From: Candidatus Latescibacterota bacterium
GTDB taxonomy: Bacteria; Latescibacterota; UBA2968; UBA8231
Assembly (NCBI GenBank): GCA_965217585.1
Contig: OZ244561.1
Coordinates: forward strand, 5,600,001 to 5,664,000
DNA: 64,000 nucleotides
Direction: 5' to 3'
Both the position numbers and the translations under genes were made by a program. The notes beneath the pieces are model-generated. The model had not been told where the DNA came from, made no database searches, and was given only the letters and a program-made list of their open reading frames with translations. Numbering within the stretch: position 1 is the stretch's first letter; every line of letters begins with the position of its first letter. This document shows positions 1 to 19,475 of this stretch, piece after piece.

Positions 1-289
1 GGCCGCCGAGGTACTCAGAAGCGCCCTCGAACTCGAACCGCGCAATACCCATGCGCTCTATCTGTTGAGCCAAGTGTATCTGCGTAGCGGCCAGCCGGAC
101 GAACGCGCGGAAATCCTGCGCACCTTCCAGCGCCTGAGCGCGGCCCAGCGGCATTTCAAGCAAGGCGCGTTATACGCCGAGCGCGGAGCCCTAGATGAGG
201 TGCGAAAGGCCCTGCAGGAAGCTCTGGTGCTCGATCCAGACCATTCCAAGGCTCGGGAAAAATTGGAACAGTTGGATAAAGAGCCATGA
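1..289 (+). CDS. Tetratricopeptide-repeat protein, 3' part (runs off window start)
   Basis: Open frame with TPR-like helices (ALELEPRNTHALYLLSQVY, ALVLDPDHSKAREKL); stop overlaps the next ATG at 286 (ATGA). Confidence 0.7.
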   Translation, partial: AAEVLRSALELEPRNTHALYLLSQVYLRSGQPDERAEILRTFQRLSAAQRHFKQGALYAERGALDEVRKALQEALVLDPDHSKAREKLEQLDKEP

Positions 290-1573
290 AGGGGCGCGTT
301 TTGTTTTTTTCTTTGTGGCTTGCTCGCCTCCAGAGGAGCAACCGTTCGATTTGGAGCCTACGGCACCCGGACCGTCCCACTTTGTCGATGTGGCCGCGGA
401 TGTCGGCCTGACGAAAGTCCACACAGGCGGCAGCGCGGAAAAGGGCTATATCGCCGAGGCCAAAGGAGGGGGTGCGGCTTGGTTGGACTTTGACGGCGAC
501 GGGGATTTAGATCTCTACTGGGTGAACGGAGCCGCGCTGGACGATGAGCAAGGAGGCGGCAATGCCCTTTACCGCAACGATGGGGCAAGCGGTTTTGTCG
601 ATGTGGCTAGCTCTTTGGGCGCAGCAGGCCGGGGCTGGGGCATGGTTTCGGGGTGCTCTTCGTCGATGTGGACGACGATGGAGACGTCGATCTGTACGTG
701 GCCAATGACTCCACCCCTAATTTCCTGTGGCGCAACGAGGGGGATGGCACCTTCACTGAAGTGGGGCTGCAAGCTCAGGTGGCGTATGGGGCGATGGGAC
801 ACTCACAGGCCGGCATGGGCGTGGCTTGGGGCGATTACGACGGGGACGCCCGCCCCGATATTTTCGCGACCCATTTTGAGGACGACTACAATACTCTCTA
901 CCGCAACGAGGGGGCGGGCCTATTCGCCGATGTGTCCGTCGCGGCTGGCTTGGGCAGGACCAGCTTTCACTTTGTGGGTTTTGGCACTGGATTTTTCGAC
1001 CGCGACAACGACGGCGACCTAGACCTGCTAGTGGCCAACGGCCACGTCTATCCGCAGATAGAGCGCGCAGGCAGCGGCACCACCTACGCCCAACCCAACC
1101 AGCTCCTCGACAATCGCGGCGGCCGCTTTGAGTTGCTCTTACCCAGCGACGGCGACAGCCTGGGTTCGGCCAAAGTGAGTCGGGGGAGTGCTATTGCCGA
1201 CTACGACAACGACGGCGATCTGGACATTCTCGTCACCAATCTCGACGACCGACCGACGCTTTTGCGCAACGATGTGGGAAATAGGCACAACTGGCTGGGG
1301 GTCGAGTTGGTCGGCAGGAAGAGCAATCGGAGTGGGATCGGTGCCCGCCTATACTTGGCGGCCGGTGGCGAAGTGCAAGTCCGCGATATTATCAGCGGCA
1401 GCAGCTTTCTCTCCAGCGAGGATCCGCGAGCCCACTTCGGTCTGGGCCGGATTGAGACGGTGGATTCGCTACAGGTGCGCTGGCCGAGCGGTGTCGTGCA
1501 GCTATTGAAGAACCTGCGGATCAACCAGTATTTAGTCGTGGAGGAGGACGGGACCGAATCGGGTAGGCGCTGA
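286..1573 (+). pseudogene. CRTAC1/ASPIC-UnbV family FG-GAP repeat protein, frameshifted with an apparent internal deletion
   Basis: DxDxDGDxDL repeats and a C-terminal ASPIC motif (HFGLG...VRWPSG). ATG286 is out of frame with FVACSPP at a T7 run (304-310). A second frame change at about 644 joins GWGM directly to GFGVLFVDVDDDG. Confidence 0.75.
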
Positions 1574-1657
1574 GAACGGCAGCAGTCTGTCGCGGTGAAA
1601 ATTCCGCTTTTAGCGCACTTGTCTGAGGCGTCAGAGGCGTCGAGAATGCGGCATCTC

Positions 1658-2815
1658 TCAGACCGCGACTCCTTCGAGCCACGGCAAATCCACCTCAATG
1701 CCAAAGCCGGGCGCGTCGCTGGGCACGAGGTAGCCGTCTTGGATGGCTGGCGTGCCGGGTAAAAGAGTCATTTCGTGGAGCGGCACCCCAGGCGGCGATA
1801 CGCTTTCCGAGCGCTCGCCCCAGACAATGGCGGGCATGGCAAAAGAAAGGTGCTGGCCGTAGGGGTAGTTCATGCCGGCGTGGGCAATGACCGAGACGCC
1901 CGCGGCCTCGGCGAGGTGACAGATTTTGACCCCGGCTGTTATGCCCCCGGCCCACAGCACGTCTGGTTGCAGGATATCGACGAAGCGACCGTCGAGCGCT
2001 TGGGCAAAGGTGCGCGGCAAGTACCAGTGCTCGCCCGAGGCGAGAGTCTGCCAAGGGAGCCGCTGGCGCACTTGGGCGTAGCCAGCCCAATCGTCGGCGG
2101 GCAGGTAGTCTTCAATCCACTTCAGGCGATAGGGACGGAGCATTTCGGCGAGGCGGACGAGGTGTTCCACGTCCTGCGACAGCCAACAGTCGAGGCACAG
2201 CTCAATGTCGTCGCCGATGAGCTGGCGTGTAGTGGCCACGATCTCTTCGATTTTCTTGAGGCCGTCGAGGCCGTCGGCCGCGCCCCACGGGGTGAAGAGC
2301 TTGGTCGCCTTAAAGCCTAGCTCCATGAACCACGCCTGCTCAAACCCGGAAGCATAGCAGAAGATTTTGTCCTTTTGCGGGCCGCCGAGCAGCTCGTACA
2401 CGGGTCTTTGCAGCAGCTTGCCCTTGAGGTCCCACAGCGCGGTATCCACGGCGCTGATGGCATAGCTGGCCAGCCCCTGGCCGCCGTAGGACGCGGTGGA
2501 GCGCACCATGATGTCCCACAACTTTTCTGTAGCCATGCAGTTTTCGCCGGCGAGCAGCGCGGCGAAGTGATCGTTGATGATGGGCAGCACGGGCGGCGAG
2601 TGGACGGTCAGCCCGAGGCCCCAAGTGCCGTCTTCGGCCGTGACCACGCAGGCGATGCGTTGCCACTCCGGGGAGCCGGTGCGGCCGGCGCGGAAGCGGT
2701 CGTAGTGGTCGAGCGGGCGGTGCAGGGAGTGGCCGGGCCGCTGGCTGGGGCACGGGGTTGTCGTCCGGGGAGGCTTGAGCGCGATTTGCGCGGCGCGGAT
2801 TTCCTTGATTTTCAC
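1658..2815 (-). CDS. Mandelate racemase/enolase superfamily acid-sugar dehydratase (L-rhamnonate dehydratase-like)
   Basis: AISAVDTALWDLKGK, LDCW, WIED, SGEH and DILQPD motifs. Confidence 0.85.
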   Translation of the reverse strand: MKIKEIRAAQIALKPPRTTTPCPSQRPGHSLHRPLDHYDRFRAGRTGSPEWQRIACVVTAEDGTWGLGLTVHSPPVLPIINDHFAALLAGENCMATEKLWDIMVRSTASYGGQGLASYAISAVDTALWDLKGKLLQRPVYELLGGPQKDKIFCYASGFEQAWFMELGFKATKLFTPWGAADGLDGLKKIEEIVATTRQLIGDDIELCLDCWLSQDVEHLVRLAEMLRPYRLKWIEDYLPADDWAGYAQVRQRLPWQTLASGEHWYLPRTFAQALDGRFVDILQPDVLWAGGITAGVKICHLAEAAGVSVIAHAGMNYPYGQHLSFAMPAIVWGERSESVSPPGVPLHEMTLLPGTPAIQDGYLVPSDAPGFGIEVDLPWLEGVAV

Positions 2816-2825
2816 AGGAGCCTGC

Positions 2826-4100
2826 CTAGGTGAGTTGGGAGAAGCGGTTGGGCGTGAAGAGGGTCTGGAGGGTTTGGGCGATGCCAGCGCGGGTTACTTG
2901 CCGTCCGGCGTCGTGCAGGTCTTGGTATTTTTCGCTTAGGACTTTGGCGAGGATTGCGCGGAAGCGCTGCCACTTGGGGATGAGGTTTTCCAGCACGCGG
3001 GCGTCCGAGTTGAAGGGGATGAAGCGGTCGCCGGTCATCTCCAAGCGCATCCGCAGATCCTGTTCGACCAAGCCCGGATGGTAATTGAACCACCAGTGGC
3101 CAATGACCATGATGTTGTCGTTGTGACAGGAGAGGACGCTGGCGTCGTACTGGTTGGCGTTGTGGAGCGGGGTGATGAAGAAGGCGTTGTCGGGATGGCG
3201 GCGCACTAGCTGCTGATAGGGATACATGTCGGCGAGGCCCACGCCGTCGCCGGCGTCGCGCCACTCGGGCTTGAGTTGGCGGATGGGGCCGGGCATCATA
3301 AAGAAGGGCAAGTTGAGTTCGCGCAGGGCCGGCAGCACGGCGTGGTGGAGGACGGCACCTTCCAGCCCGCTGAGGTCGTGGACTTGGCAGTGGGGCGGGA
3401 ACGAGCACGCGCCGTACGCGACGCCGTGCAGCTTGCCATACCAGTCGGCGAGGAAGCGGCGAATCGCCTGGGCGGTGGCTGGCTGGCTGGGGTCGTTGCC
3501 AACCTCGTAGCCCCAGGCGTTGAGCTTCACTGCTGCGCGCGGGTAGTGCAAGACGAGTTCGTCGAGGCGGTAGCCGGACAGATAGCACTGGTCCCACTCG
3601 CCGCTTTCGTAGTAAGCGCGCTCTTGGTCGTTGAACACGTCTTGGGTGCCGACGATGCGGCGGACGCCAGCCAGTTCCATGCAGCGGCGCTGTATTTCTG
3701 CTGGGGCAGTGTCTGCGTAGAACTGGCGCGCCTCGTCGAGAGTGGCGGCGTTGGGGTCGAGGCCGAGGGCTTCCAGCGCGACGACCACGCCGCGACAGCC
3801 TTCGTCGAATGGATCTGAAGCGGCGTCGGCAAAAAGCTTCTGCCAAGTAAAGTCGCCTTGTTGTTCTATGCTCCAGGAGTAGAAGGTGGCCGGGTCGATG
3901 TGGCCAGCGGCAAAGAGCTTGCGGCGCACGTAGTGATAAGAGAGCTGCTGGTCGATGCCGTACAGGCAGAGTTGGGGGCCGGCTTGGGGGCCGAGGAGAT
4001 GGGTGTGCCAGTCGTCGACGATCAGCTGTTGGGCCGAGGTTTCTTCGGTGACGACGGTGGGGATTTGGTCGCGGAATAGGGGTAGGGTAGAGGTGCTCAT
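2826..4100 (-). CDS. uxaC: Uronate (glucuronate) isomerase, divergent amidohydrolase type
   Basis: DWHTHL metal motif, GHWWF, SDARVLE. Confidence 0.8.
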   Translation of the reverse strand: MSTSTLPLFRDQIPTVVTEETSAQQLIVDDWHTHLLGPQAGPQLCLYGIDQQLSYHYVRRKLFAAGHIDPATFYSWSIEQQGDFTWQKLFADAASDPFDEGCRGVVVALEALGLDPNAATLDEARQFYADTAPAEIQRRCMELAGVRRIVGTQDVFNDQERAYYESGEWDQCYLSGYRLDELVLHYPRAAVKLNAWGYEVGNDPSQPATAQAIRRFLADWYGKLHGVAYGACSFPPHCQVHDLSGLEGAVLHHAVLPALRELNLPFFMMPGPIRQLKPEWRDAGDGVGLADMYPYQQLVRRHPDNAFFITPLHNANQYDASVLSCHNDNIMVIGHWWFNYHPGLVEQDLRMRLEMTGDRFIPFNSDARVLENLIPKWQRFRAILAKVLSEKYQDLHDAGRQVTRAGIAQTLQTLFTPNRFSQLT

Positions 4101-4250
4101 GGCGAAGGCTCCTAGTCGAGATAAGGGCCATAACAGTAGGCCAAGAGCAACGGGGCGTCAAAGTTTGCCCCTGTATGCCGACGGTCCAAGAGCTTTCGCC
4201 ATTGCCTCGTCGCTTGTTATTTTAAAAAGAAATAACAACGAGGTTTTATT

Positions 4251-4451
4251 ATGGATACAACAGTCACCTTAGACTCGGAAATTGTCCAAGCCATCCAGCA
4301 GGCGACAAAGCAAAAAGACAAAGCCTCCGCAGTGCATATGGCATTAAATGAATACCTACGTTTGCAAAAGCTCCGCCAACTAGCCGATCTAGCCGGTACT
4401 GTTGAGCTACGCTATTCCAACGACGAGTTGGAGGCGATGGAGGAGTGCTGA
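4251..4451 (+). CDS. vapB: VapB-type antitoxin
   Basis: 66 aa with an RHH-like N-terminus (TTVTLDSEIV...AVHMALNEYLR); upstream GAGG RBS; followed by a PIN stub. Confidence 0.7.
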   Translation: MDTTVTLDSEIVQAIQQATKQKDKASAVHMALNEYLRLQKLRQLADLAGTVELRYSNDELEAMEEC

Positions 4452-4480
4452 TTCTCGCAGACATGTCTTGCTGGATTTAG
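4445..4480 (+). pseudogene. VapC PIN toxin 5' stub
   Basis: (V)LILADMSCWI* resembles the PIN start MILvDTSvWI and overlaps the vapB stop. Confidence 0.55.
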
Positions 4481-4531
4481 AAAGCATTTTCTCTTTGCAA
4501 TTTCAGGGCAAAGATACAGGTTTAGGTCTTC

Positions 4532-4753
4532 TTACTTGAGCAAGTTAAGCACTTTTGCCTGTGCAGATTCCGCAATCGAATCCCGAATGAAGTCACTAGC
4601 TCTGAGAATTTCAATGCCAATGAGCTCTCCCTTATCATTGTATTCTGCTGTTATATTGGGACTAAGTTCAATACTGCCGTTTTCTGGATCGTCAGAGATC
4701 GACAAGTATAAGATGTCTTCTTGCTCAAAATATCTCATCTTCGCCTTATCCAT
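4532..4753 (-). CDS. DUF2283 family protein (putative antitoxin)
   Basis: YFEQEDILYL...GELIGIEIL pattern. Confidence 0.75.
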   Translation of the reverse strand: MDKAKMRYFEQEDILYLSISDDPENGSIELSPNITAEYNDKGELIGIEILRASDFIRDSIAESAQAKVLNLLK

Positions 4754-5015
4754 GGATGAATCTCCCCGTTTTAATCCGAACATTGATTTGCTGTCGTGTG
4801 GTGACATGGATAGTCACAGGTGTTATAACGTCCTCGTCCGATTCGTAGGGAATCAAGACCAACTTGCTTTCGTATTGTCCAACAGCAATATCTCGGCCAG
4901 TGACCACATCGTGATATCGCTCGGAAGTATGTCTTATTATGTTCTCAATTATGGACAGGTCAAATCCGCGTAAAGAGGCTTTGTATTGCAGGTAGTCTGT
5001 CCAAACGACTCTCAT
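4746..5015 (-). CDS. DUF4258/RelE-like putative toxin
   Basis: 89 aa (MRVVWTDYLQYKASLRG...ITPVTIH) overlapping the DUF2283 gene, a typical pairing. Confidence 0.55.
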   Translation of the reverse strand: MRVVWTDYLQYKASLRGFDLSIIENIIRHTSERYHDVVTGRDIAVGQYESKLVLIPYESDEDVITPVTIHVTTRQQINVRIKTGRFIHG

Positions 5016-5174
5016 AGAGACCTTTTGGGCATCATTTTCGAGCGTATGGAGAAGTGGGACTGATTTTACGCCCTCGACGTCGGTTCGGTGATAGTTCCCC
5101 ACTGCCATGCGTCATCCTCAGTCGAGCTAGTCAAGGTGATGTGCAGTGCATGAAGAGCCCGGTGATGATGGGTA

Positions 5175-6017
5175 TTATAATTCATCATCATATATCAGTG
5201 GTTCTTCGCAAAATAAAACAGTCAACGTTTTTCCATATTGACCTAGGCCGACTATATCTTCGCTTACTTTTTCTGACTGTGCTCCCGAAAACCAAGCATC
5301 CAAGTAGGAGACGCTTTCCACTTTTGTCCCTGATAGGATATTGTTTTGGTCTTCATTAAATGCTGCGGTTTGGCTTTGGGGGGGTATCCCTTCACCTTTT
5401 GTCAGCCACGATGCTCCTCGAATTTTCGTTTTCATTTCGTCAGACATAAATGAGTATTCGATTCTGTTATTGGAACTTACAATGAGAGCAACAGGATAAT
5501 CTGCAAAGGTCGCATATCGGATAGCAGTAGCAGTAATCGACGTTTTGCATTTTTCGGAAAGTGCTTCAATTGCGTGAAATCCGGGAATACTTTCTTTAAA
5601 TAAGGCTTTACTAAACAAATGTCGAGGCATGAGTAGCCCTGCGGCAAAGTGGTCAGCCTCAAGTTCGTGAATGTCAGAGGAGGTAAATCCGTTGTGAGAA
5701 TGATGAATACTATCGCCTTGTGGAAATAGAAGCTCTGGATGAAGCGGCAAGAAGTAGTGTCCTAGTTCGTGGGCCACAGTGAACCGAACAAAGCCTTCGT
5801 TGTTGAATCTCGATGAGTAAATAATACCGAAAGTATCTCCTTGTTTTACTAGGCAACCGAAAAATCCTTGTATCTCTTCAGATTTACACAAGATTTCATG
5901 TTGCTCGGCGATATCAATAGGATTGATGGGAAGAGATTCAATACAAAGCCGTTTTACTAGGTTCTCGGCTTGAGCTTCAGCTTGCAATAACTGCTGTCTT
6001 TTATTTGCAGGCATCAT
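5175..6017 (-). CDS. ImmA/IrrE family zinc metallopeptidase
   Basis: RFTVAHELGH (HExxH) and ELEADHFAAGLLMP. Confidence 0.9.
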   Translation of the reverse strand: MMPANKRQQLLQAEAQAENLVKRLCIESLPINPIDIAEQHEILCKSEEIQGFFGCLVKQGDTFGIIYSSRFNNEGFVRFTVAHELGHYFLPLHPELLFPQGDSIHHSHNGFTSSDIHELEADHFAAGLLMPRHLFSKALFKESIPGFHAIEALSEKCKTSITATAIRYATFADYPVALIVSSNNRIEYSFMSDEMKTKIRGASWLTKGEGIPPQSQTAAFNEDQNNILSGTKVESVSYLDAWFSGAQSEKVSEDIVGLGQYGKTLTVLFCEEPLIYDDEL

Positions 6018-6355
6018 TATGATTTCTTTTTGCTGGTAAGAAATTCTGCGAAATCAGCTAATTTCAGACGGTCATCATCCGACATCTCTTGGGCATTCCT
6101 GAAAATGCTTTGTAAGGTCGGCCCAGATGCAGTTGGATCAGTTTCGCGACCTATCAGGAAATCAGTTGTGACCTCAAGGGTGTCTGCTAGACGCTTTAAG
6201 TTATCAAAAGACGGTGCTCGCCTGCCCGTCTCAAAATGTGAGACGGCGGAAGGTTGAAGGCCAGATTTTTTCGCAAGCTCCGTTTGGCTTAACCTTTTGA
6301 TTTCTCTTGCCTTTTTGAGATTCTGGGAAAATATGCCGGGAGTCGGGGTTGACAT
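6017..6355 (-). CDS. XRE-family HTH repressor
   Basis: LSQTELA...VSHFETGRRAPS...LADTLEVTTDFL; stop overlaps the peptidase start. Confidence 0.9.
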   Translation of the reverse strand: MSTPTPGIFSQNLKKAREIKRLSQTELAKKSGLQPSAVSHFETGRRAPSFDNLKRLADTLEVTTDFLIGRETDPTASGPTLQSIFRNAQEMSDDDRLKLADFAEFLTSKKKS

Positions 6356-6393
6356 AGCGGTCAAGATCCTTGGATTTGGATATAGACGAAAAA

Positions 6394-6410
6394 GTCATAT
6401 AGTATATGAC
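6394..6410. promoter_or_regulatory. Palindromic operator GTCATATA-G-TATATGAC
   Basis: Perfect 8-1-8 inverted repeat just upstream of the XRE gene. Confidence 0.65.
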
Positions 6411-6452
6411 AAAAAATCAAAAAATCAAAAGGAAAAGAGGTGAGCTGAGCTG

Positions 6453-6545
6453 ATGAAAAGGCGACCTCGGCTGGTCAAAAGACCCTGCCTCTAGCCGGTA
6501 AGAGATCGTCGGTCTCCGCGACAGGCGAACCAAGGAAGACCGGAA
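6453..6545 (+). pseudogene. Degenerate duplicate of the yjzC-like gene 5' half
   Basis: ggtcaaaagaccctgcctctagccggtaagagatcgtcggt aligns with ggccaaaaggctcctgcctctggccagtacgagatcgttggt of the intact gene, with a 1-nt deletion and TAC>TAA; has its own GAGGTG RBS. Confidence 0.7.
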
Positions 6546-6564
6546 ACTCGGCGACCGGGGGAGG

Positions 6565-6622
6565 TTGACATGGCGAGCGGAGTCTCTATATATATAGACT
6601 ATATCGTCTATATATAAAAGAC
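6565..6622 (+). promoter_or_regulatory. Sigma70-type promoter overlapped by palindromic operators
   Basis: TTGACA at 6565 and a TATATA -10 region at about 6587-6594; inverted repeat TATATATAGAC-N6-GTCTATATATA; GTC-N11-GAC site. Confidence 0.65.
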
Positions 6623-6651
6623 GAAATCGCAAATAGAAAGGAGGTGATTTT

Positions 6652-6840
6652 ATGGGCAAGCAACACCGACCGGGCCAAAAGGCTCCTGCCTCTGGCCAGT
6701 ACGAGATCGTTGGTCGACGCGGCGGAAGAACCGGTGAGGAACGGACGGTGGTAAAGGGAGAACCTCTACCACCAACACCGGAAAAAGGCCAGGGTTACCG
6801 CATAGCTGACCGCACCAAAAACAAAAGTGGGCGCGGGTAG
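6652..6840 (+). CDS. YjzC family small protein
   Basis: RPGQKAPASGQY...GEPLPPTP pattern; strong AAGGAGGTG RBS. Confidence 0.8.
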   Translation: MGKQHRPGQKAPASGQYEIVGRRGGRTGEERTVVKGEPLPPTPEKGQGYRIADRTKNKSGRG

Positions 6841-6848
6841 TATGATGC

Positions 6849-6885
6849 TGGGCAAGGTAGGCTTTTGCCTTGCCCAACACCTTTT
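6849..6885 (+). terminator. Intrinsic terminator-like hairpin between yjzC and the 86-aa gene
   Basis: TGGGCAAGGTAG-GCTT-TTGCCTTGCCCA followed by ACACCTTTT. Confidence 0.6.
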
Positions 6886-6919
6886 ATAAAATTTTAAAAG
6901 ATGAGGAAAAGAGGAAAAA

Positions 6920-7180
6920 ATGAAATTTCAAGGTGCCGTAATTAGGGAGCAAGGTGTCACGTTTGCTGTTGTCATTGTTAAAAAGCACGTATTGGATAAT
7001 CCGAATGCTGCTCAAAAGGCGATTCAAACCTTTGGGTCTGTTTTTTCAGGTTTCCCAGTGACGCTTATGGCTCAAGACTATCAAGGTCATCCCTCTTATT
7101 ATGGTCGAAGAGATATTGCGAAATTTATGGCCAATGTCCCGCTATCGGCCATTCCATGGCGAGAATACACTTTGAATTGA
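6920..7180 (+). CDS. Conserved-looking hypothetical protein (86 aa)
   Basis: AGAGGA RBS; MKFQGAVIREQGVTFAVVIVK; AT-rich codon usage matching the cassette. Confidence 0.7.
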   Translation: MKFQGAVIREQGVTFAVVIVKKHVLDNPNAAQKAIQTFGSVFSGFPVTLMAQDYQGHPSYYGRRDIAKFMANVPLSAIPWREYTLN

Positions 7181-7207
7181 CGTAATTGATAGCCTCAAAA
7201 AGCTATA

Positions 7208-7396
7208 TTAGACAGTACTTCGCACGTCAATTCTACCCGTCACTGCGGCAGAGACGAGCGCGGTTCGGCGTTCTTTGAGGTGGTTAATTGCTACGTCAGT
7301 TTTTTCAAGTAGCTTATCAATAGTCATCAGAGTCTTTTGTGATTATTATGTCTCCTCTTCCGCTATCCATGTACTCCGCATCTTCCGAAAGCTCAT
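7208..7396 (-). pseudogene. hsdS: Type I R-M hsdS relic (only N- and C-terminal ends remain)
   Basis: C-terminus IDKLLEKTDVAINHLKERRTALVSAAVTGRIDVRSTV*; frameshifted start MSFRK/AEYMDSG resembles the HsdS YKDSG start; ATGA overlap with yhcG. Confidence 0.75.
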
Positions 7397-8406
7397 CTAT
7401 CGCCTGCTGCGGCGGACTCGCACTGCAAATAAAACTCTTGCAGTTTGGCTTCCAGCAGTTTCTTGTCGGGCAACTGCATCTGATACTCAGCAATTAAGGC
7501 GGGCGAGAGTGTCCGGTTGAGGGCGTACTCGACGACTTCTTCGTCTTTGCTCGCACACAGCAAGACACCGATGGATGGGTGTTCGTGCGGCTTCTTCACA
7601 TCGCGGTCCAAAGCCTCTAAATAAAAACTGAGCTTGCCCAAATACTCCGGCTCGAACCGTCCCACCTTCAGTTCAAACGCGACCAAACAGTTAAGCCCGC
7701 GATGAAAGAAGAGCAGGTCAAGCGCAAAATCGCGATCGCCAACTTGGAGGGGAAACTCGGCACCCACAAAACAAAAATCCCGCCCTAGTTCGACCAGAAA
7801 ATCCCGCAGCCTTGCGATCAGTGCCCGCTGTAAATCAGGTTCGGCGTGGTCGTCCGGCAAGTCGAGAAACTCTAGCAAATAGGTGTCTTTGAGCACTTTG
7901 TGGGCTCCCGGCTGCATTTGTCTCAGCACTGCTGAGACTTTTGGCGGATTGAGCACGGCTCGCTCAAATAAGGCCCCTCGGAACTGGCGTTCAAGTTCAC
8001 GGCTGGACCATTTTTCGCGGATCGCCGTTTTCAGATAAAACTCGCGTTCTTCCGGGGTTTTACTCTGCGACAGAATGATGAGGTTGTGCGTCCAAGGTAA
8101 TTGTCTCACCAGTGGTGCGACTTTTTCATCGTCCCGATAGGTCGCGTAAAATTGCCGCATCCGAAACAGATTCGCCCGCGTAAATCCACGCAGGCCGGGC
8201 TGCGTCGTTTTGAGGTACTTGGCCAGTTGATCGACGACACCCTCGCCCCAAGCGGCAGACTCTAATTTGTTGTGGATATATGCCCCGACCTGCCAGTACA
8301 GTTCAACTAGCATGGAGTTGACAGCCGAGTACGTGCGCTGTTTTGCCACGGCAATCATCTGAGCGACTTCATCGAAATCGCGGCTGGGGATCACCTCGTT
8401 ACTCAT
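7393..8406 (-). CDS. YhcG/DUF1016 PD-(D/E)XK nuclease-domain protein
   Basis: LYWQVG, NLFRMRQFY, LPWTH, DLLFFHRGLNCLVAFELK. Confidence 0.9.
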   Translation of the reverse strand: MSNEVIPSRDFDEVAQMIAVAKQRTYSAVNSMLVELYWQVGAYIHNKLESAAWGEGVVDQLAKYLKTTQPGLRGFTRANLFRMRQFYATYRDDEKVAPLVRQLPWTHNLIILSQSKTPEEREFYLKTAIREKWSSRELERQFRGALFERAVLNPPKVSAVLRQMQPGAHKVLKDTYLLEFLDLPDDHAEPDLQRALIARLRDFLVELGRDFCFVGAEFPLQVGDRDFALDLLFFHRGLNCLVAFELKVGRFEPEYLGKLSFYLEALDRDVKKPHEHPSIGVLLCASKDEEVVEYALNRTLSPALIAEYQMQLPDKKLLEAKLQEFYLQCESAAAGDR

Positions 8407-8460
8407 TGCGAAAATCCTTCGATCACTCCGACGATGCGATCCGGCACGCCTTTTAATCCT
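8403..8460 (-). pseudogene. Possible hsdM 3'-terminal relic
   Basis: LKGVPDRIVGVIEGFSQ* resembles HsdM C-termini; ATGA overlap with yhcG. Confidence 0.45.
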
Positions 8461-8528
8461 TGTGCTGTACGAAATCGATCCGACCGCCTCGATGCGCATC
8501 GGGCAGATGTGGCTGGCCGCAGGGGTTG

Positions 8529-11279
8529 CTAAGCAGTACCTAACCTAGCTTCGCTGAGAGCCTCGCTTTCAACCAACGCCTCGACGCGCACCGGACAGAC
8601 CTTTAGCTCGGCGGTGTCGGTGACGGGGTCGTACCCGGAGCCGGTGAGGATGTTGATCGGCACGTCGTTGAAGCTGAAGCTGGCAAAGACCGTGCCGCGC
8701 GGCGAGCGGGTGTTGGCCTCGGCGCGGATTTCGATGGCTCCGCGCGCGCTCGACAGGCGGCACAAGCCCCCGTCTTCAAGGCCCCAAGCGGTGATGTCTT
8801 CGGGGTGGACTTCGAGGCGCTCTTCCGCGAGCAGGTAGTCGATCCCTTGGGAGCGGCCCGTTTGGGTGCGAGTGTGGTAGGCTTGGAGCCGGCGGCCGGT
8901 CGTCAGCCAGACCGGGAATTGGGCCGAAAGAATCTCGGCCGGGTCGCGGTAGCGGATGATTTTGAAAAGGCCGCGACCGTTTCTGAAAACCCCTTCGTGC
9001 AAAATCGGCGTCCCCGGGTGGCCCTTTTCGGGTACGGGCCACTGGTACTCGCCCTTGTCGATCCGCTCCCAATCGAGGCCGGCGTAGATGGGCGAGAGGC
9101 CGCATAGTTCGTTGAACACGTCCTCAGCCGAATTGTAGTCGAAGCCGCTAAAGCCAAGCCGCTGGGCGAGTTGACTTATGATCCACCAGTCGGGTTTGGC
9201 CTCGCCGGGCGGAGGCACGGCTTGGCGCAGGCGCTGGACCCGGCGCTCGGTGTTGGAGCAGACCCCGTCGGTCTCGGCAAAGGCACTGGCGGGGAAGACC
9301 ACGTCGGCCATCGCGGCGGTCTCGGTGAGGAAGATGTCGATGACCACGAGGATGTCTAGGCTCTTGAGGGCGTGCTCGCAGTGATGGCGGTCCGGGTCGG
9401 AGACGACGGTGTTTTCGCCGTTGATGAGCATGGCAAAAATCTCGGTGCCGCAGCGGTTGAGCGCCTGGACCTTGGTGATGCCTTTGTCCTGGTCCATCTC
9501 CCGCCCGTAGAGCGCGGTGAATTTTTCCCTGTTTTCAGGCAGGTTAACCGGTTGGAAGCCGGGGTAATTGGATGGGATGGCCCCGGAGTCGCCGGCACCT
9601 TGGATGTTGTTCTGCCCGCGCATGGGGTTGATGCCGGTGCCTTCGCGGCCGATGTTGCCGGTCAGCAGGGCGAGATTGCACAGGCTCTGGACGTTGTCAA
9701 CACCGCAAATGTGCTCGGTGATGCCGAGGGTGTAGTAGATGGCCCCCTTGTCGGCCGCCCCGTACCAACGGGCGGCCTGTTCGATGTCCGCGGCGGGCAC
9801 CTCGGTAATGGTCGAAGCCCACTCGGGTGTGAACTCGACTACGTGCTCTAGGAATTGCTCAAAGTCGGCCGTGCGCGCTTCCATAAAGGCGCGATCTGTC
9901 AGGTCGTCGCGGACGATCACGTGCGCCATAGCCAACAGCAGGGCCACGTCCGAGCCGACGCGGATGGGCAGGTACAGGTCGGCCATGTGCGCGAGGTCGA
10001 TCTTGCGCGGGTCGGCGACGATCATCTTGGCCCCTCGCTTGAGGGCCTTTTTGATCCGCGTCGCCGCCACCGGGTGACACTCGGTCATGTTGGTCCCGAT
10101 GCAGAAGATCAGGTCGGGTTTGTCCATGTCGGCCAAGGGGTTCGACATGGCGCCGCGTCCGATGGAGGCTGCCAGACCGGCAACCGTGGGCGCGTGTCAG
10201 GCACGGCTACAGTTGTCTATGTAGTGAGTGCCGTAGCCTCGGCGGATGAACTTCTGCATGCAGTAGTTGGCCTCCGAAGGCGTGCGGCCGGAGGCGACGC
10301 CGTAGATGGCGTGGCGGCCGTGCTCGGCGAGCACCTTGGCAAAGCCTTGGGCGGCGCGGTCGAGCGCGGTGTCCCAGTCGGTGGGATGGAGCTGGCCGTC
10401 CTCGCCGCGGACTAGGGGATCTGTGAGCCGATCGCTGTGCTGGACGAAGTCAAAGGCGAATTGGCCCTTGACGCACAGCGCGCCCTCGTTGGCCGGGCCG
10501 TCCATCGCCGGTTGGATGCCGACGAGTTTATCCTCTTTGGACAGCAGATCCACCGAGCAGCCAACGCCGCAGTACGGGCAGACCGAGCGGGTCTTTTCGA
10601 TCTCGCCGGGCAGGTCGGCGGCGCGCAGGGCCTTTTTGTCGGCGAGGGCGCCGGTGGGGCAGGTCTGGACGCATTGGCCGCAGAAGGTGCAGGACGAATC
10701 CTTGAGCAGGCCATTGAACTCCGTGGTGATCTGCTTGTGGAAGCCGCGCCCCATGGCGGCAATGGCGTGGTCGCCTTCCTGCTCGGCGCAGACGCGGACG
10801 CAGCGGTTGCACGAGATGCACAAGTCGTAGTCGCGCAAGATGAAGGGGTTGTCGTCGGTAGGATGCACCTCGCCCGATTGCGCGCCGGCGAAGCGGCCGG
10901 AGTGGGCTTGGTAGCGATCGACGAGGTCTGTTAGCTCTTGGGAAGCGTACCCGCGCAGGGGATCCACCTCGACTTCGCGGTTTTCCGAGACGACCATTTC
11001 CAGCAGCGTCTTGCGGTGCTTCTCGATGGCCGCGGTCGCCGTTTTGACGACCATGTCGGGCGCGGCTTGGGCCGTGCAGGAGGCGACCGGATTGCGCGCT
11101 CCTTCGATTTCGACCACGCAGAGCCGGCAGGCCCCAAAAGGTTCTAGGCGCGGGTCGTAGCAGAGGGTGGGAATATCGCGGCGATGGCGTTGGGCGACCT
11201 CGTAGAGGGTCTCGCCGGGAGCAAAGGCGACTTCTTCGCCGTCTAAGGTCAGGGTGTGTTGTTGCCCATTGGTATTCAT
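8529..11279 (-). CDS. fdhF: Formate dehydrogenase alpha subunit, selenocysteine-containing (916 aa)
   Basis: Two ORFs in the same frame joined by TGA at 10197-10199 in IDNCSRA-U-HAPTVAGL; N-terminal 2Fe-2S and 4Fe-4S motifs; CPYCGVGC; PMRGQNN. Confidence 0.92.
10167..10185 (-). promoter_or_regulatory. Bacterial SECIS element
   Basis: GGTTGCC-GGTCT-GGCAGCC hairpin starting 11 nt 3' of the UGA, closely resembling the E. coli fdhF SECIS upper stem. Confidence 0.85.
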
Positions 11280-11293
11280 GGTAAGGCCCTCGT

Positions 11294-12952
11294 TCAGGCG
11301 CAGACGCGCTGTGCGACTTGGTCGGGAAAGTACTTGAGGAGGCTATCGGTGATAAAGGGGGCGGCCACGCCGAGGCCGCAGGCGCTGGTGGCCTTCATGA
11401 CGTCGCCGATGTCTTCTACTTCGGCGCGCCAAGCCGCTAGGTCCGCAGGCCCGCCGCCATCAAGCCGCTCGGTCAACCGTTGGGTGCCGATGCGACAGGG
11501 GAAGCACTTGCCGCAGGACTCCTCGGCAAAAAAGGCCATAGCTTGGCGGGCGATGTCCACCATGTCGCGGCGGTCGTCAAAGGCCATGATGCCGCCCGAG
11601 GCGAGGATCGAGCCGCGGGCGCGAATCGCCGGTTCGTCGAGGGTGGTATTAAGGTCGTCGCCGGCGAGAAAACCGCCCGAGAGGCCAGCCATAGTAACTG
11701 CTTGGATATGGCGGCCTAGCTCCGGCCCGCCGGCCCATTCGTGGAGCAAGGTGTCGAGGGGCAGGCCAAAGGGAATTTCGTAGTTGCCCGGCCGCTGCAC
11801 GTCGCCCGAGAGGCTGATGACCTTGGTGCCTGGGTGGCCGTCGAGGCCCAGCGAGCGATACCACGCGGCACCGCGTCGCACGATCGGAGGTGCCGAGGCC
11901 AAGGTTTCGACGTTGTTGACAGCCGTGGGCAAGTTTTCAAAACCGTGCGTCACCGGGTAGGGCGGGCGATTGCGCGGATAGGGATGTTTGCCTTCAAGGC
12001 TGTTGAGCAACGAGCCTTCCTCGCCGCAAATGTACGCGCCGGCACCGCGACGGATGTCGAGCGTACAGGAGAAGTCGCTGCCGAGGATGTGCGGGCCGAT
12101 TAGGTTGGCGGCGCGGGCCTCGGCTAGCGCGTTGGCGAGGATGGCGTTGATTTCCGGGTATTCGTAGCGCAGATAGATAAAGGCGCGAGTAGAGCCGGTG
12201 GCGTACGCGGCTAGGAGCATGCCTTCGATGACCGCGTGTGGATCCCATTCGAGTAGCGCGCGATCCTTAAAGCAACCCGGCTCGCCTTCGTCGGCATTGC
12301 AGACGACGGTTTTGGGCTCGCCCGGGGCCTCGGCGACGGCCTGCCACTTCTGGCCGGTGGGAAAGCCCGCGCCGCCCCGGCCGGCGAGCTGGCTGTCGAC
12401 AATGAAGGCGACCAGTTCGGCTGGCTTCCCGTCGAGGGCTTGTTGCAGTGCTTGGTACCCGCCGGTTTGGCGATAGCCGGACAGGGTGGCACGGCCCGGA
12501 GCGCGGATGTCGGCGAAGACGCATTCCTCGTAGCCGCCGGGATTGGGCACGGGCAGCGGCGAGGGGCTGGGCGCAAGGGCCTCCGCGTTGGTTCCGACCA
12601 GCACTTGATCGCCTTTGATGACCGGAATGGGATCGTCGCAGCGGCCGGCGCACGGCATGGGCGTGGCACCGGCGAGGCTGGCGCAGAGCGCGTCGGCTCC
12701 GCGCAGCGCGCATATCGGGCCGGTGCAGACGCGCGGGGCACTTTGGCCGGGAACTTGGCGGGCGAAGTGGTGGTAAAAGGTGACGGTGGCAAAAAGCTCG
12801 GCGAGGGGGATTTTCAGGCCCGTTGATACGGCCTTGAGAGCTTCTTCCGACAAATAGCCGTCGCGGTCGTGGAAGGCGTGCAGAAGCGGCAATAAGGGAG
12901 CGGTTTCGCGCTGCCAGTGTGCGACGAGTGCGTCGTCTGTAGGGGAGATCAA
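11294..12952 (-). CDS. NuoE-NuoF fusion (diaphorase subunit of NAD-dependent FDH)
   Basis: TFYHHF, CTGPIC...CAGRC, GRGGAGFPTG, NADEGEPG, GAGAYICGEE, ESCGKCFPCRIG. Confidence 0.9.
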   Translation of the reverse strand: MISPTDDALVAHWQRETAPLLPLLHAFHDRDGYLSEEALKAVSTGLKIPLAELFATVTFYHHFARQVPGQSAPRVCTGPICALRGADALCASLAGATPMPCAGRCDDPIPVIKGDQVLVGTNAEALAPSPSPLPVPNPGGYEECVFADIRAPGRATLSGYRQTGGYQALQQALDGKPAELVAFIVDSQLAGRGGAGFPTGQKWQAVAEAPGEPKTVVCNADEGEPGCFKDRALLEWDPHAVIEGMLLAAYATGSTRAFIYLRYEYPEINAILANALAEARAANLIGPHILGSDFSCTLDIRRGAGAYICGEEGSLLNSLEGKHPYPRNRPPYPVTHGFENLPTAVNNVETLASAPPIVRRGAAWYRSLGLDGHPGTKVISLSGDVQRPGNYEIPFGLPLDTLLHEWAGGPELGRHIQAVTMAGLSGGFLAGDDLNTTLDEPAIRARGSILASGGIMAFDDRRDMVDIARQAMAFFAEESCGKCFPCRIGTQRLTERLDGGGPADLAAWRAEVEDIGDVMKATSACGLGVAAPFITDSLLKYFPDQVAQRVCA

Positions 12953-13195
12953 GCTAGGTACCTTTTGTATTTAGGTGGCCGCCGGAAGGCAACCGGGTTG
13001 CTTGCGTATATAGATGAATAATTTAGTGGTTGCGCCAACTGAGGGCAACCGAGCACAGCGGCTATGGATCATTCAAAGATTTAGAGCAATTTATGCCGGT
13101 GGCATCTTGCGGCTGGAAACATTTAGCGACAGTGCTCTTTATCGTGGCGATACGAATCATGTTTTCCGCGGAATGGGTGGGGCCTTCGAAAACCT

Positions 13196-14044
13196 TTGCA
13201 CCGTCAGCTACTGGATGCCGTGAGGCAGTACTTGGTGGTGGGAGGGATGCCGGCCAGCGTGTTTGCCTACACCCGGTCCGCGTCGCCTGCCGATACCGAG
13301 GCTGAGAAACAATCGATTCTCGAGACCTTTGCTGAGGATTTTGGCAAATACGCGCGCAGAGCCGATCCCGACCGGCTGCGCAAGGTGTTCACCCGCCTCC
13401 CGCTGCTGATCGGTCAGCGGCTGAAATACGCCCATATTGACCGGGACGATCAAGCGAGAAATCTGGCCCATGCTTTGTCGTTGTTGTGCAAGGCCTTAGT
13501 CGCTTGGCGCGTCCATCACAGTGCCTGCAACGGCGTCCCGCTGCGGGCAGAAATGAAAGAGACCGTGTTCAAGCCGCTGTTCCTCGACGTCGGCTTGATG
13601 TCTAGTGCCTGTGGCCTCAACCTGCTGGACTTTACCAGCGCAACGGACGTGCTGCAAGTAAACCAAGGGAGTGTTTGCGAGCAGTTTGTCGGACAGCATC
13701 TGCTCTACGGGCAGCCTTCCTTCGTCCGGCCGGAGCTGTTCTTCTGGATGCGGGAGAAGTCCTCTTCCAATGCCGAAGTCGATTACGTGATCAGCGTGGG
13801 TACTAAAATCATCCCCGTCGAAGTCAAGGCGGGTAAGACCGGTACACTCAAGTCGTTGCAGGTCTTTCTCAAGACCAAGGCACAGAAAATAGGGGTGCGC
13901 GTAAACAGCGCTCCTCCCACTTGGCATACGGCCAGCTATGCCTTGCCTGAGATGGCGGACCAATCCTTTGAATTGGTCTCGATCCCTTTCTATCTAGTGG
14001 GGCAATTGCGTCGATTGCTCGGAGAGAAACAAGGCGGTGGCTAA
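13196..14044 (+). pseudogene. AAA+/DUF4143 ATPase, 5'-truncated
   Basis: YLVVGGMP, FLDVGL, AEVDYV, IPVEVKAG present; no Walker A/B region upstream in any frame. Confidence 0.7.
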
Positions 14045-14153
14045 TTCACTACCTGGGTGCATCGTGCGAATTCATTGGCTGACTCTTGAGAGTGCCCTTT
14101 ATTTGTCTTAATCCGCGAAGATAGGGAACATCCACCGCCTTCCACATATCGCT

Positions 14154-17100
14154 ATGGACCCAAGCCTTTCGTCTCGCTGCCTTTCGCTCGACCTTGAAGT
14201 CGGCAAGCAGGACCACCGCATTCATGCCTTCGCCGCGGTACGTCCGAATGTCGATCAACCGCTGGTATTCCAAGGCGATGACTTGGCGGCAGCATTGGCA
14301 GAACTCGACGATTTCGCTGATGGCGCGGACTTCCTGCTCGGGCACAACCTGATCAATTTCGATTTACACCATTTGAGAGCCGCAAAGCCCGATCTCCGAC
14401 TGTTGGGATTGCCGACGGTGGATACGCTGCGGCTCAACCCCCTCGCCTTTCCTCGCAATCCCTATCACCACCTCGTCAAGCACTATCAGGATGGGCAGCT
14501 CAAACGAGGGCGAATCAACGATCCGGCACAGGATGCCCAGCTCGCGCTAGATGTCTTCGATGATCAGCAAACCGCGTTACGCGATGCGCCGCTTGGCTTG
14601 CTCGCCGCATGGCATTGGCTGACCGGCACGGGACCCGACGGCGCGGGATTCGACGCCGTTTTCGACGCCATACGGTCCAAGCTCCGGCCCACCGACGCGG
14701 CAGCGAATGCAAGGATCCGCGAGCGGCTTGCGGGCATCGCCTGTCAGAATCGCGGTCGGGATGTTCTCGAGAATGCCGCCCAAAGCGGCTGGCCGCTAGC
14801 GTACGCGCTGGCCTGGCTGTCCGTTGCTGGCGGCAATTCCGTGATGCCACCGTGGGTTCGACATCAGTTCCCAGAAGCCGGTAAGCTGGTTCGCCGACTA
14901 CGGGATATGCCCTGCGGCGAGGCCGACTGCGATTGGTGCCGGGAAAGGCACGACCCGCACAAGGAGCTTAAGCGTTGGTTCGGCTTTGACGATTTTCGCC
15001 CGGAGCCGTTGAGTGCCGACGGACGCCCTATGCAGCAGTTGATCGTCGAGGCGGCAATGGCCGGAGAGCACGTTCTGGGGATTCTGCCCACCGGTACTGG
15101 CAAGTCGCTCTGCTATCAGATCCCGGCCCTGTCCCGCTACGACAAGACTGGCGCTCTCACGGTGGTGATTTCGCCCTTGGTCGCGCTCATGGCGGATCAG
15201 GTGGCGGGCCTTCGCAAGCAGGACATCGACTGCTGCGTGACTATCAATGGAATGCTGTCGATGCCGGAGCGGGCCGAGGCACTCGATCAGGTGCGTCTGG
15301 GGGACGCCGGTATTCTCATCATCTCGCCGGAGCAACTGCGTAGCACCGCCGTGCGCCGTGCGCTCGATCAACGAGAGATCGGGGCTTGGGTGCTGGACGA
15401 GGCTCATTGCCTCTCGAAGTGGGGGCACGACTTTCGGCCGGATTATCGCTACGTGGGACGCTTCATCCGCGAAAAGGCGGGACAGGCCCCGATTCCACCA
15501 GTGCTGTGCCTGACCGCGACCGCCAAGCCCGACGTGGTGGCGGACATTGGGCAGCATTTCGGGGACGAGCTTGGTATCGAATTAGAAGTTTTCGACGGCG
15601 GTGCCCATCGCACCAATCTGGAGTTCACAGTAGTGCCGACGACCGGGGGAGAGAAATTCGCGCATATCCATCAGATCCTAATGGACGACCTGCCGCCGGA
15701 TACGCCCGACGGTGCCATTGTCTATTGTGCGACGCAACGGCAGACTGAAGAGGTGGCGGAGTTCCTGCAGGACAAGGAGATCGCGGCTGACTACTTCCAC
15801 TCCAAGCTGCCACCGGAGACCAAGAAGAGCGTACAGCAGCGCTTTATCGGCGGTGAGTTGCGCGTGATCGCAGCCACCAATGCCTTCGGCATGGGTATCG
15901 ACAAGCCGGACGTGCGGCTGGTGATCCACGCCGACATCCCGGGATCTATAGAGAACTACATGCAGGAGGCAGGCCGCGCCGGACGCGACCGGCAGACGGC
16001 TCGCTGCGTACTGCTCTATGTAACAGACGACGTGGATAGACAGTTCTTCATGTCGGCGCGTTCGCGGCTCACTCGGCGAGAGATTCACGGCGTCCTAAGA
16101 GCGTTGCGCAACCTGGACCGTAAGAAGCGTCTGAGTGGCGAGGTCGTAGCCACTGCCGGCGAGATCCTCGGCGAGGACGAGGAAAAGGTCTTTGAGCGGG
16201 ACTCCGCCACCGACGATACCCGCGTGCGAACCGCCATCGCTTGGCTGGAGGAGGCGGTGCTGCTGACACGAGAGGAGAACCGAGTGCAGGTGTTTCCTTC
16301 GTCTCTCCGGGTGGATTCGGTGAAGGAAGCACGCGGTCGGTTGGCGAAGGCGGCTGTGACCGACGACTGCCGGCGACGGCTGCTTAGAATCGCCGAGACG
16401 CTGATCGATGCCGATCCCGACGAGGGCATCTCCACCGACGATCTGATGGGCGTATCCGGTCTGAGCGCCGAAGGCGTGCGTGGTGCCCTGTACGACTTGG
16501 AGCGGCTGGGCATCGCCAGCAACGATACGGCGCTGACTGCCTTTGTCCACGCGGGGGTGGAGCGCAACTCGCGGAAGCGCTTTGATGAGGCGGCGGAGTT
16601 GGAGACCGCTCTGATCGCGCAGATGCGCGAGGCGGCACCGGATATGGGCAAGGGAGATACGTCACCCCTGCATTTGCGCGTCGCCGCGCAAACCCTGCGA
16701 GATGCGGGGGTGGCCGATCCGCTGCCGGAACGACTACGGCGCATTCTCCGCAGCATCGCCCGCGACGGGCGCGGCGAAGAGGGCGGCACCGGCAGCATTG
16801 GGATGCAACAGCGGGATGTGGAGACGGTGCAGGTGACGTTGCGGCGCGAGTGGTCGGATTTGGAGGAGCTCGCCTCGCGCCGGCGCGAGGGGGCGAAGCG
16901 CCTGCTGGATCACTTGCTCACCTGCCTGCCGCCCGGGAGCCGGGGGACGGATCTACTGGCTGAGACTACCCTCGGCAAGCTGTTGGAAGCGATCACGTCC
17001 GACCTGTTTCTAAAGAGCAGGAACCCCGAGAGGTTGCTGGACCGCGCCCTCCTATGGCTGCACGAGCAGGAGGTCATTCGCCTCCACAAGGGCTTGGCGG

Positions 17101-19325: not shown

Positions 19326-19475
19326 TCCGCCGATGATACGACTCGTATTGCCCTCGCTGCGGAGGTTGTGTCCAATCGCATTCGCGCCGCGTGGTCCTCG
19401 TCGGTGCAAGTTGACAGCCTGCACGGGAACAGCCTTATTTGCGCGCGCTAACCAACAGCCAAAGGAGCCTGAAAA

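Follow-up and report, generated by a model that had tools for sequence, protein, structure and literature searches.

A CapH/CapP-like regulator pair divergent from two tiny genes in a Latescibacterota genome, with the widespread small protein P86 as part of its predicted cargo

What is a repressor and protease switch for, if all that it appears to control are two tiny genes? The question is raised by positions 5175-7180 of a 64,000-nucleotide (nt) stretch of a Candidatus Latescibacterota genome (contig OZ244561.1, 5,600,001 to 5,664,000; "the window" below always means this full stretch). An initial annotation, made from the letters alone, had seen there an XRE repressor gene and an HExxH peptidase gene standing divergently to a yjzC-like gene and a gene for an 86-aa protein, for which we use the working name P86. 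The four open reading frames (ORFs) are confirmed by the ORF list, and the AT-rich island in which they were said to lie is borne out by a GC content of 0.43-0.50 across 4001-7500 against 0.60-0.66 in the flanks. We read the cassette, with a probability of roughly three in four, as a CapH/CapP-type switch answering to DNA damage or phage infection, the cargo of which is made up solely of small proteins. New here is what the switch would carry, namely a YjzC-like protein and P86 of a family without a name, together with the breadth of that family, its conservation and its promiscuous association with defence systems. Loci compared with the window carry L-numbers.

The evidence begins with the regulators, which by their profile matches belong to the CapH/CapP family, in keeping with the repressor and HExxH peptidase switch first proposed. 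The capP-like gene (5175-6017, minus strand) encodes an M78 zinc metallopeptidase of 280 aa that matches the PADLOC capP model over positions 4-241 of 242 (2.5e-62) and Pfam Peptidase_M78 (2.3e-8), and when all PDB sequences were searched the single distinct match at E<=1e-3 was Thauera CapP 7T5T, at 2.7e-14 over residues 47-269 of 280. This alignment takes in the AHELGHY and E..AD.FA..LLMP motifs; HELGH occupies residues 83-87 and ELEADHF begins at residue 118, which gives the HExxH motif and the downstream Glu ligand of a zinc peptidase. By sequence, the protein matches the full-length CapP architecture beyond the peptidase domain, with its central helix-turn-helix (HTH)-like and C-terminal GAF-like regions, and the 7 further M78-like genes elsewhere in the same genome are all far weaker capP matches. 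The capH-like gene (6017-6364, minus strand) encodes an XRE repressor of 115 aa if read from TTG 6364, although its true start is probably ATG 6355, as in the nearest relative (L009, described below), and it matches PADLOC capH over model positions 6-102 of 103 (3.8e-25) and Pfam HTH_3 (2.3e-16). For E. coli CapH, cleavage is placed between F82 and R83, within helix one of the C-terminal domain (in the accessible text of Lau et al. 2022, bioRxiv 10.1101/2022.04.27.489752, restated in that of Calloji et al. 2026, bioRxiv 10.64898/2026.05.16.725639). The window CapH has an F-R dipeptide at the matching position, F88-R89 (F85-R86 counted from ATG 6355), and Arg stands at the aligned cleavage column in 19 of 26 CapH-like neighbours of P86. 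According to the accessible part of Lau et al. 2022, all such controlled operons have capH and capP on their upstream side, encoded by the other strand, and this arrangement is found in the window, where the two reading frames overlap by 1 nt and diverge from the cargo.

The 287-nt spacer between capH and yjzC is consistent with control by such a repressor. A perfect palindrome, GTCATATAGTATATGAC, lies at 6394-6410 and overlaps the -10 of a promoter-like site for capH on the minus strand (TTGATT-16-TATACT, 6428-6401) called by the consensus promoter scan, an overlap that fits autoregulation. On the plus strand a putative yjzC promoter (6565-6594) consists of TTGACA at 6565-6570 followed by a TA-repeat -10, and two further operator-like palindromes, GTC-N12-GAC at 6582-6599 and GTC-N11-GAC at 6606-6622, cover its -10 and +1 positions. 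The cores of all three palindromes are of A/T solely or nearly so, and the 44 occurrences of the loose GTC-N11/12-GAC pattern over the whole window correspond to some 0.2 expected for a spacer of this length, where 3 are observed. Downstream of this promoter are the yjzC-like gene (6652-6840, plus strand, 62 aa, Pfam YjzC PF14168), a strong hairpin with a T-rich tail (6849-6876, plus strand) that may be a partial terminator, and the P86 gene (6920-7180, plus strand), for the 86-aa member of a widespread and highly conserved family without a name.

Comparison with L009, a Latescibacterota metagenome-assembled genome that holds the nearest relative of the cassette, helps to explain this layout. 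There all four ORFs are intact and in the same order, with amino-acid identities to the window of 83% for CapP, 87% for CapH, 85% for YjzC and 81% for P86. Its spacer has only 102 nt, its TTGACA overlaps the capH start codon with TATATT 17 nt on, and a site GTCATAGAATATATGGC aligns with the perfect palindrome of the window; the yjzC promoter of the window was placed in part because this homologous spacer has TTGACA-17-TATATT. In the window we find a tandem duplication of about 200 nt (6347-6746) that comprises the capH start, operator, promoter and 5' part of yjzC. Copy 1 (about 6347-6545) keeps the perfect palindrome, and its yjzC part has decayed to a plus-strand pseudogene fragment (6454-6545) in which stop codons interrupt the frame, while copy 2 (about 6563-6746) holds TTGACA, the TA-repeat -10, the two palindromes and the intact yjzC. 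Between 6477-6544 and 6678-6745, the two arms of the direct repeat, identity is 74%, and the repeat was placed in a three-way alignment with L009. The live promoter owes its -35 TTGACA to sequence overlapping the start codon of capH. The TA repeat at 6587-6592, which is part of both the -10 and an operator core, differs in length by 1-2 nt in metagenome contigs (matched at 85% likeness, and perhaps from related strains), which could alter promoter spacing.

How such a switch would work can be set out by analogy with the CapH/CapP pairs of E. coli and Thauera, on which the steps of activation by single-stranded DNA (ssDNA), CapH cleavage and operator binding are modelled. At rest the CapH-like repressor, presumably as a dimer or tetramer, would occupy the AT-rich GTC...GAC palindromes both at its own promoter (6394-6410) and over the -10/+1 region of the yjzC promoter (6582-6622). 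ssDNA arising from DNA damage or phage replication would activate the CapP-like peptidase, which would cleave CapH within the C-terminal helix, at the F-R dipeptide, and so lift repression. YjzC would then be made. So would P86, by transcription that either runs through the hairpin or starts at a weak promoter of its own. Both proteins would presumably be small stress or anti-phage factors, induced by damage and working by themselves, and their target may be a universal one, for example nucleic acid or nucleotides, because the P86 family is 62-67% identical between bacteria and methanogens.

P86 itself has no family in Pfam, NCBIfam or PADLOC, and its only named match is to a PHROG family of unknown function (phrog_23950, 1.8e-32). 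A word-indexed search gave 619 relatives, of which the best 120 are 62-99% identical, are almost all of 85-86 aa and come from Gemmatimonadota, cyanobacteria, Acidobacteria, Proteobacteria and Methanoregula/Methanoculleus; across bacterial phyla and methanogens the family has 55-87% identity. When every representative was searched with a profile, 753 clusters at 50% identity had E<=1e-3 and 397 had E<=1e-10. Longer forms are rare (23, mostly single records) and include single fusions with DUF2188, DUF3892 and an ATP-binding cassette ATPase. The gene is single-copy in its own genome and is found on 21 plasmid records, 14 of them conjugative, and tblastn against 50,697 phage records gave nothing. 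The AF2 model of P86 (pLDDT 95.1, pTM 0.85) is a small mixed alpha/beta protein with the order b-b-a-b-b-a-b. By sequence, the PDB profile search reached a best E of 0.86 and the comparison with the named clusters of the Atlas gave no match. By structure, similarities to splicing endonuclease, PhzF/DapF-like and PD-(D/E)XK-like folds came up, but with E>=5e-3 or Z<=5.3 they do not rise above noise, and we do not claim a nuclease fold from this model.

The genomic surroundings of P86 tell more. A scan of genome contigs confirmed 156 relatives and 80 loci were kept, classified with profiles built from the neighbours; since several of the 80 are near-duplicates (L065/66/68, L039/41/56, L020/27, L064/69) the locus counts below are not independent. 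An M78 peptidase gene was found near P86 in 46 of the 80 loci, divergent from it in 39, on the same strand in 5 and more than 3 kb away in 2. A WYL regulator is divergent from P86 in 7 loci by profile, or 8 if L058, identified by PADLOC, is counted, and XRE only is present in 3. In most loci the 86-aa protein does co-occur with XRE/M78 or WYL regulators; the neighbourhood check put forward in the initial annotation had asked about XRE and ImmA. A tiny partner gene adjoins P86 in 43 of the 80 loci, usually directly upstream although it may also be downstream: DUF2188 (PADLOC PDC-S16) in 23, DUF3892 in 10, F6 (phrog_1090) in 9, F8 in 7, F11 in 6, F27 and PDC-S38 in 4 each, and YjzC in one (L009); in the other 37 none of these eight partner families adjoins.

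In many loci large defence genes are next to P86. On the same strand and 3' of P86 we found type III CBASS genes (CBASS being the anti-phage signaling system based on cyclic oligonucleotides) behind the WYL gene of L058, type II CBASS genes in L055 and type I in L073 and L081, ThsB/TIR genes in L012, L016 and L022, type I restriction-modification (RM) genes in L038, NsnA in L072, PDC-M14A in L023, L031, L050 and L053, PDC-S65/S60 in L030 and an OLD/AriA-like ATPase in L032. Lying 5' of P86 are short prokaryotic Argonaute genes (L034), PDC-S66 TIR genes (L061, L062), PDC-M19 (L047) and an LmuB-like gene (L052). For the remaining regulator-linked loci PADLOC gave nothing on the same strand within 2.6 kb, so that the stand-alone form as in the window is common. 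A different arrangement exists on the conjugative Rhizobium plasmids pRi1724 (L089) and pRL8 (L090), 224-4261, where a DUF2188-P86 pair is divergent from the defence pair IetA/IetS and no CapH/CapP or WYL gene lies between them. P86 is thus a portable gene behind CapH/CapP-like or WYL (CapW/BrxR-like) regulators, and it is found with tiny genes (DUF2188, DUF3892, PDC-S38 and others) either as the sole cargo or at the head of large defence operons.

Some further observations concern these loci. In eight of them (L039, L041, L050, L055, L056, L072, L076 and L080) a three-gene regulator variant lies 5' of P86, and it is also present in L091 at 1753-3556; the order is capP-like peptidase (2.6e-61 in L091), a 140-aa protein F7 with no HTH match, and a third protein, some 190 aa long, that matches Sigma70_r2 weakly (2.8e-4, below the Pfam cut-off); from these sequences the variant may be a protease/anti-sigma/sigma form of the switch. 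One Nostocaceae contig (L020 and L027) has two P86 copies 33 kb apart, each 2.2 kb 3' of a YjzC gene that adjoins a fused HTH-M78-UPF0175 protein of RmrA type. The small gene after P86 in L084 (6275-6574) matches GhoS at borderline strength (3.7e-4, 20.9 bits where the cut-off is 21), and the F6 partner family may be of Cas2/GhoS-like kind.

The YjzC-like protein was followed in the same way. It scores 28.3 bits against PF14168 (gathering threshold 25) over profile positions 1-50 of 55, and matches phrog_3202 at 1.2e-10; of its 626 relatives the best 120 are 72-95% identical. Its predicted model (pLDDT 83) has three strands and no Foldseek match below E 0.89. YjzC served to find 80 metagenome loci, of which 42 have an upstream flank of 1.5 kb or more, and in 25 of these 42 an M78 gene lies within 2.6 kb of YjzC, with XRE only in 3 more. 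P86 is present in one of the 80 YjzC loci and YjzC adjoins P86 in one of the 80 P86 loci. The four-gene set as a conserved unit, as initially proposed, does not survive this count, and from it together with the M78 link we conclude that one kind of switch carries YjzC and P86 as separate cargoes, with YjzC an exchangeable partner; we make no claim that the two proteins bind each other. The top relatives of the two proteins are on contigs of equal sizes (5848, 13881, 21314, 97217 and 5689703 nt), by which the pairing would be confined to a close clade.

When the cassette is set against known systems, the closest is CapH/CapP itself (Lau et al. 2022; Calloji et al. 2026). The likeness covers the XRE repressor with its M78 peptidase, the extended C-terminal region of the latter, the gene overlap, the divergence from the controlled operon and the F-R site that the repressor has in its C-terminal helix. 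The window differs in having neither CBASS nor another large effector and no Cys in the switch loop, and its putative operator is an AT-rich GTC...GAC palindrome over -10/+1, whereas that of CapH/CapP is a 22-bp site upstream of -35. The cassette had been called undescribed, which needs to be narrowed. In its accessible part Lau et al. 2022 (bioRxiv 10.1101/2022.04.27.489752) draws CapH/CapP operons found via FlaGs and labelled 'DUF2188 + hypothetical protein', 'DUF3892' and 'DUF2188 + nucleotide cyclase', and the first two of these (Figure 6F) resemble the window in that their cargo consists solely of tiny uncharacterised proteins; such an architecture is therefore in print but unstudied. YjzC and P86 are not among the cargo families named in that part of the paper, which cites Burroughs & Aravind 2020 for the link of DUF2188 and DUF3892 to defence. 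Our literature search found no functional study of DUF2188 or DUF3892 and no text that names P86, which has no name to search by, or that ties YjzC to such switches; for YjzC no relevant literature was found, as judged by title and abstract.

DUF2188 (PDC-S16) offers the best parallel for P86, as both are small, very conserved and mobile, occur behind CapH/CapP or WYL regulators, and stand alone or head unrelated defence systems. P86 is nevertheless a separate sequence family without detectable relation to DUF2188, has no Pfam or PADLOC model and is predicted to have its mixed alpha/beta fold. The WYL regulators CapW/BrxR are a second ssDNA-sensing type in the accessible text of Blankenchip & Corbett 2024 (PMC11662680), and regulators of this kind account for the 8 divergent WYL loci counted above, while the window has none. 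DdrO/IrrE of Deinococcus and ImmR/ImmA of ICEBs1 and phages are alike in the logic of a protease that cleaves a repressor and in the peptidase superfamily, and the window differs from both in having no global regulon and no mobile-element backbone; also, its peptidase matched CapP and no IrrE structure at E<=1e-3.

Several observations weigh against our reading of the cassette. The link from the switch to the two genes is itself a prediction from sequence. The TTGACA motif and the three palindromes of the initial annotation are present, but the consensus promoter scan did not call the yjzC promoter, the TA-repeat -10 of which matches the consensus in 4 of 6 positions. Likewise, the two tiny genes are the only cargo, as was said of a two-gene mini-operon, but the 6849-6876 hairpin (12 bp, -22.6 kcal/mol, z -3.1) separates them and a single transcript is therefore not assured; the terminator scan does not list this hairpin, and L009 has no hairpin between yjzC and P86. 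In an RNA library one 188-nt contig has 100% identity to 6665-6852 and covers yjzC only, and the library holds nothing on P86; the contig may be carry-over of DNA, and the result proves neither transcription nor silence. In the peptidase the switch-loop Cys is absent, a loop of similar length having Gln at the aligned position and residues 56-156 containing no Cys, though in the accessible text of Lau et al. 2022 (bioRxiv 10.1101/2022.04.27.489752) the cysteine-switch loop is present in 134 of 408 CBASS-linked CapPs and is not treated as defining. The HTH of CapH has Phe at the position of the conserved Trp described in the accessible text of Calloji et al. 2026. By profiles, 24 of the 80 P86 loci have no regulator near P86, of which 6 have short flanks and one (L058) has the WYL gene seen by PADLOC. 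Finally, the best Foldseek match of P86 was at E 5.3e-3 against PDB and BFVD each and the wide structure search with VIA reached a best Z of 5.3, and because P86 has no recognisable fold or motif, any role for it is conjecture.

Of the other explanations the one that calls for most attention, though we consider it unlikely, is that the cassette is a remnant: CapH/CapP and the small genes would once have stood at the head of a defence operon of greater size (CBASS, TIR, RM or similar), since lost, and would now be functionless by themselves. In at least 10 of the regulator-linked loci large defence genes do come after P86 and its partners on the same strand (L012, L022, L030, L038, L050, L053, L055, L072, L073, L081), the spacer of the window contains a decayed duplication, and the island is pieced together, with an orphan VapB-like gene among its parts. 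Against this stand four ORFs that are intact both in the window and in L009 at 81-87% identity, with convergent genes right after P86 in both, and the closest relatives of YjzC and of P86 share contigs of equal size. Moreover, many other M78-linked loci have no same-strand PADLOC gene within 2.6 kb downstream, and operons of small proteins only are drawn in the accessible part of Lau et al. 2022. A pairing of toxin and antitoxin is less probable still, whether P86 is taken as a toxin neutralised by the variable small protein upstream of it (YjzC, DUF2188 or others) or the Xre-COG2856 pair as itself the toxin-antitoxin module. A variable small gene is indeed usually directly 5' of P86, rare fusions with DUF2188 and DUF3892 are among the 23 longer proteins, and the island has other genes of toxin-antitoxin type; against this, P86 and YjzC are independent (1/80 each way), 37 of 80 P86 loci have none of the eight partner families adjoining and the partner may be upstream or downstream.

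The least probable, by a little, is that a prophage or integrative element has decayed here and left its ImmR/ImmA-type immunity module, with the small genes as early genes of that element. The M78/XRE pair shares its superfamily with ImmA/ImmR, P86, YjzC and F6 all match PHROG families of unknown function, P86 is on the plasmid records given above, and on pRi1724 and pRL8 an integrase is 2-3 kb from P86. Set against these are an island without integrase, tRNA, phage structural or replication gene (no integrase or tRNA was found in 1-20000 either), the empty search of the phage records, and a capP model matched at full length, including the C-terminal region aligned to 7T5T; elsewhere the neighbours of P86 are defence systems. 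The initial annotation had itself named routine membership of homologs in mobile remnants as an outcome that would tell against it, and by the 21 plasmid records and the PHROG match this has in part come about, though no phage record matched. Its statement that no integrase or CBASS gene is nearby stands for the island, where neither is found, while the neighbours are still of toxin-antitoxin or defence type. Also, no operon of CD-NTase and effector lies between the conserved flanks, so the pair does not class as a CBASS-associated regulator, and no Rfam family was found in 4000-8700.

If the CapH/CapP-type switch is accepted, the part played by P86 may be put in more than one way. We regard the chances as about even that it is an autonomous small effector or stress factor, and consider it clearly less likely that it is an accessory factor tied to ssDNA-sensing regulators. 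A wider and speculative proposal is that P86 is an unnamed pan-prokaryotic part of ssDNA-gated immunity, made whenever CapH/CapP or WYL sensors fire, and that it is either a self-sufficient minimal effector on a universal target or an amplifier or resetter of the ssDNA signal for a downstream system; if this is true, stand-alone cassettes such as that of the window would be its minimal working form. A 2026 paper on CapK/CapS has renamed 'Cap' as "controller of associated/adjacent pathways" and suggests that small genes behind such regulators (e.g. yegP) may be immune or general stress genes. CapH/CapP, CapW and CapK/CapS are now read as general "controllers of adjacent pathways", and the purpose of such a switch is most easily addressed in cassettes that carry nothing but one or two tiny proteins. 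P86 is a good candidate for this, being unannotated, very widespread, unusually conserved over bacteria and methanogens, and adjoining at least 10 kinds of defence system. A phenotype, if found, would explain a recurrent unknown gene of many defence islands, and if there is none this would be one more CapH/CapP locus.

The site in which the cassette sits is a variable hotspot in the genus. In 18 same-genus genomes the flanks (2800-4480 and 8561-10200) are 76-95% identical and usually 0.6-1 kb apart, with the YhcG gene between them in some, conservation of the two flanks over the genus being otherwise put at 88-95%, and a search for 5175-7180 in 30 related genomes gave no match except one of 94 nt at 68% identity. 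Also, contigs in two DNA runs (85% likeness; they may be of related strains) join 4446 to 7900 via 32 other letters, and a form without the whole cassette therefore exists.

Among the neighbours, the VapB-like antitoxin gene (4251-4451) is an orphan with no intact VapC adjoining, and a DUF2283 gene (4532-4807) overlaps an unassigned 120-aa ORF (4746-5108), an arrangement that resembles a toxin-antitoxin pair. A YhcG/DUF1016 PD-(D/E)XK nuclease gene (7393-8499; PADLOC candidate PDC-S02, 5e-133) is convergent with P86, and relatives of this nuclease are again near P86 in L017, L021, L031 and L080. Just 3' of P86, about 60 nt at 7221-7280 are found again, at 79-89% identity, in the same genome (C1:4999947-5000010) and in more than one copy in related genomes, and could be either a terminator that is shared or a small repeat element. 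Further on, a formate-dehydrogenase-like gene is split into two minus-strand ORFs (8529-10148 and 10197-11279) with 48 nt between them, and this gap could be due to an in-frame TGA for selenocysteine.

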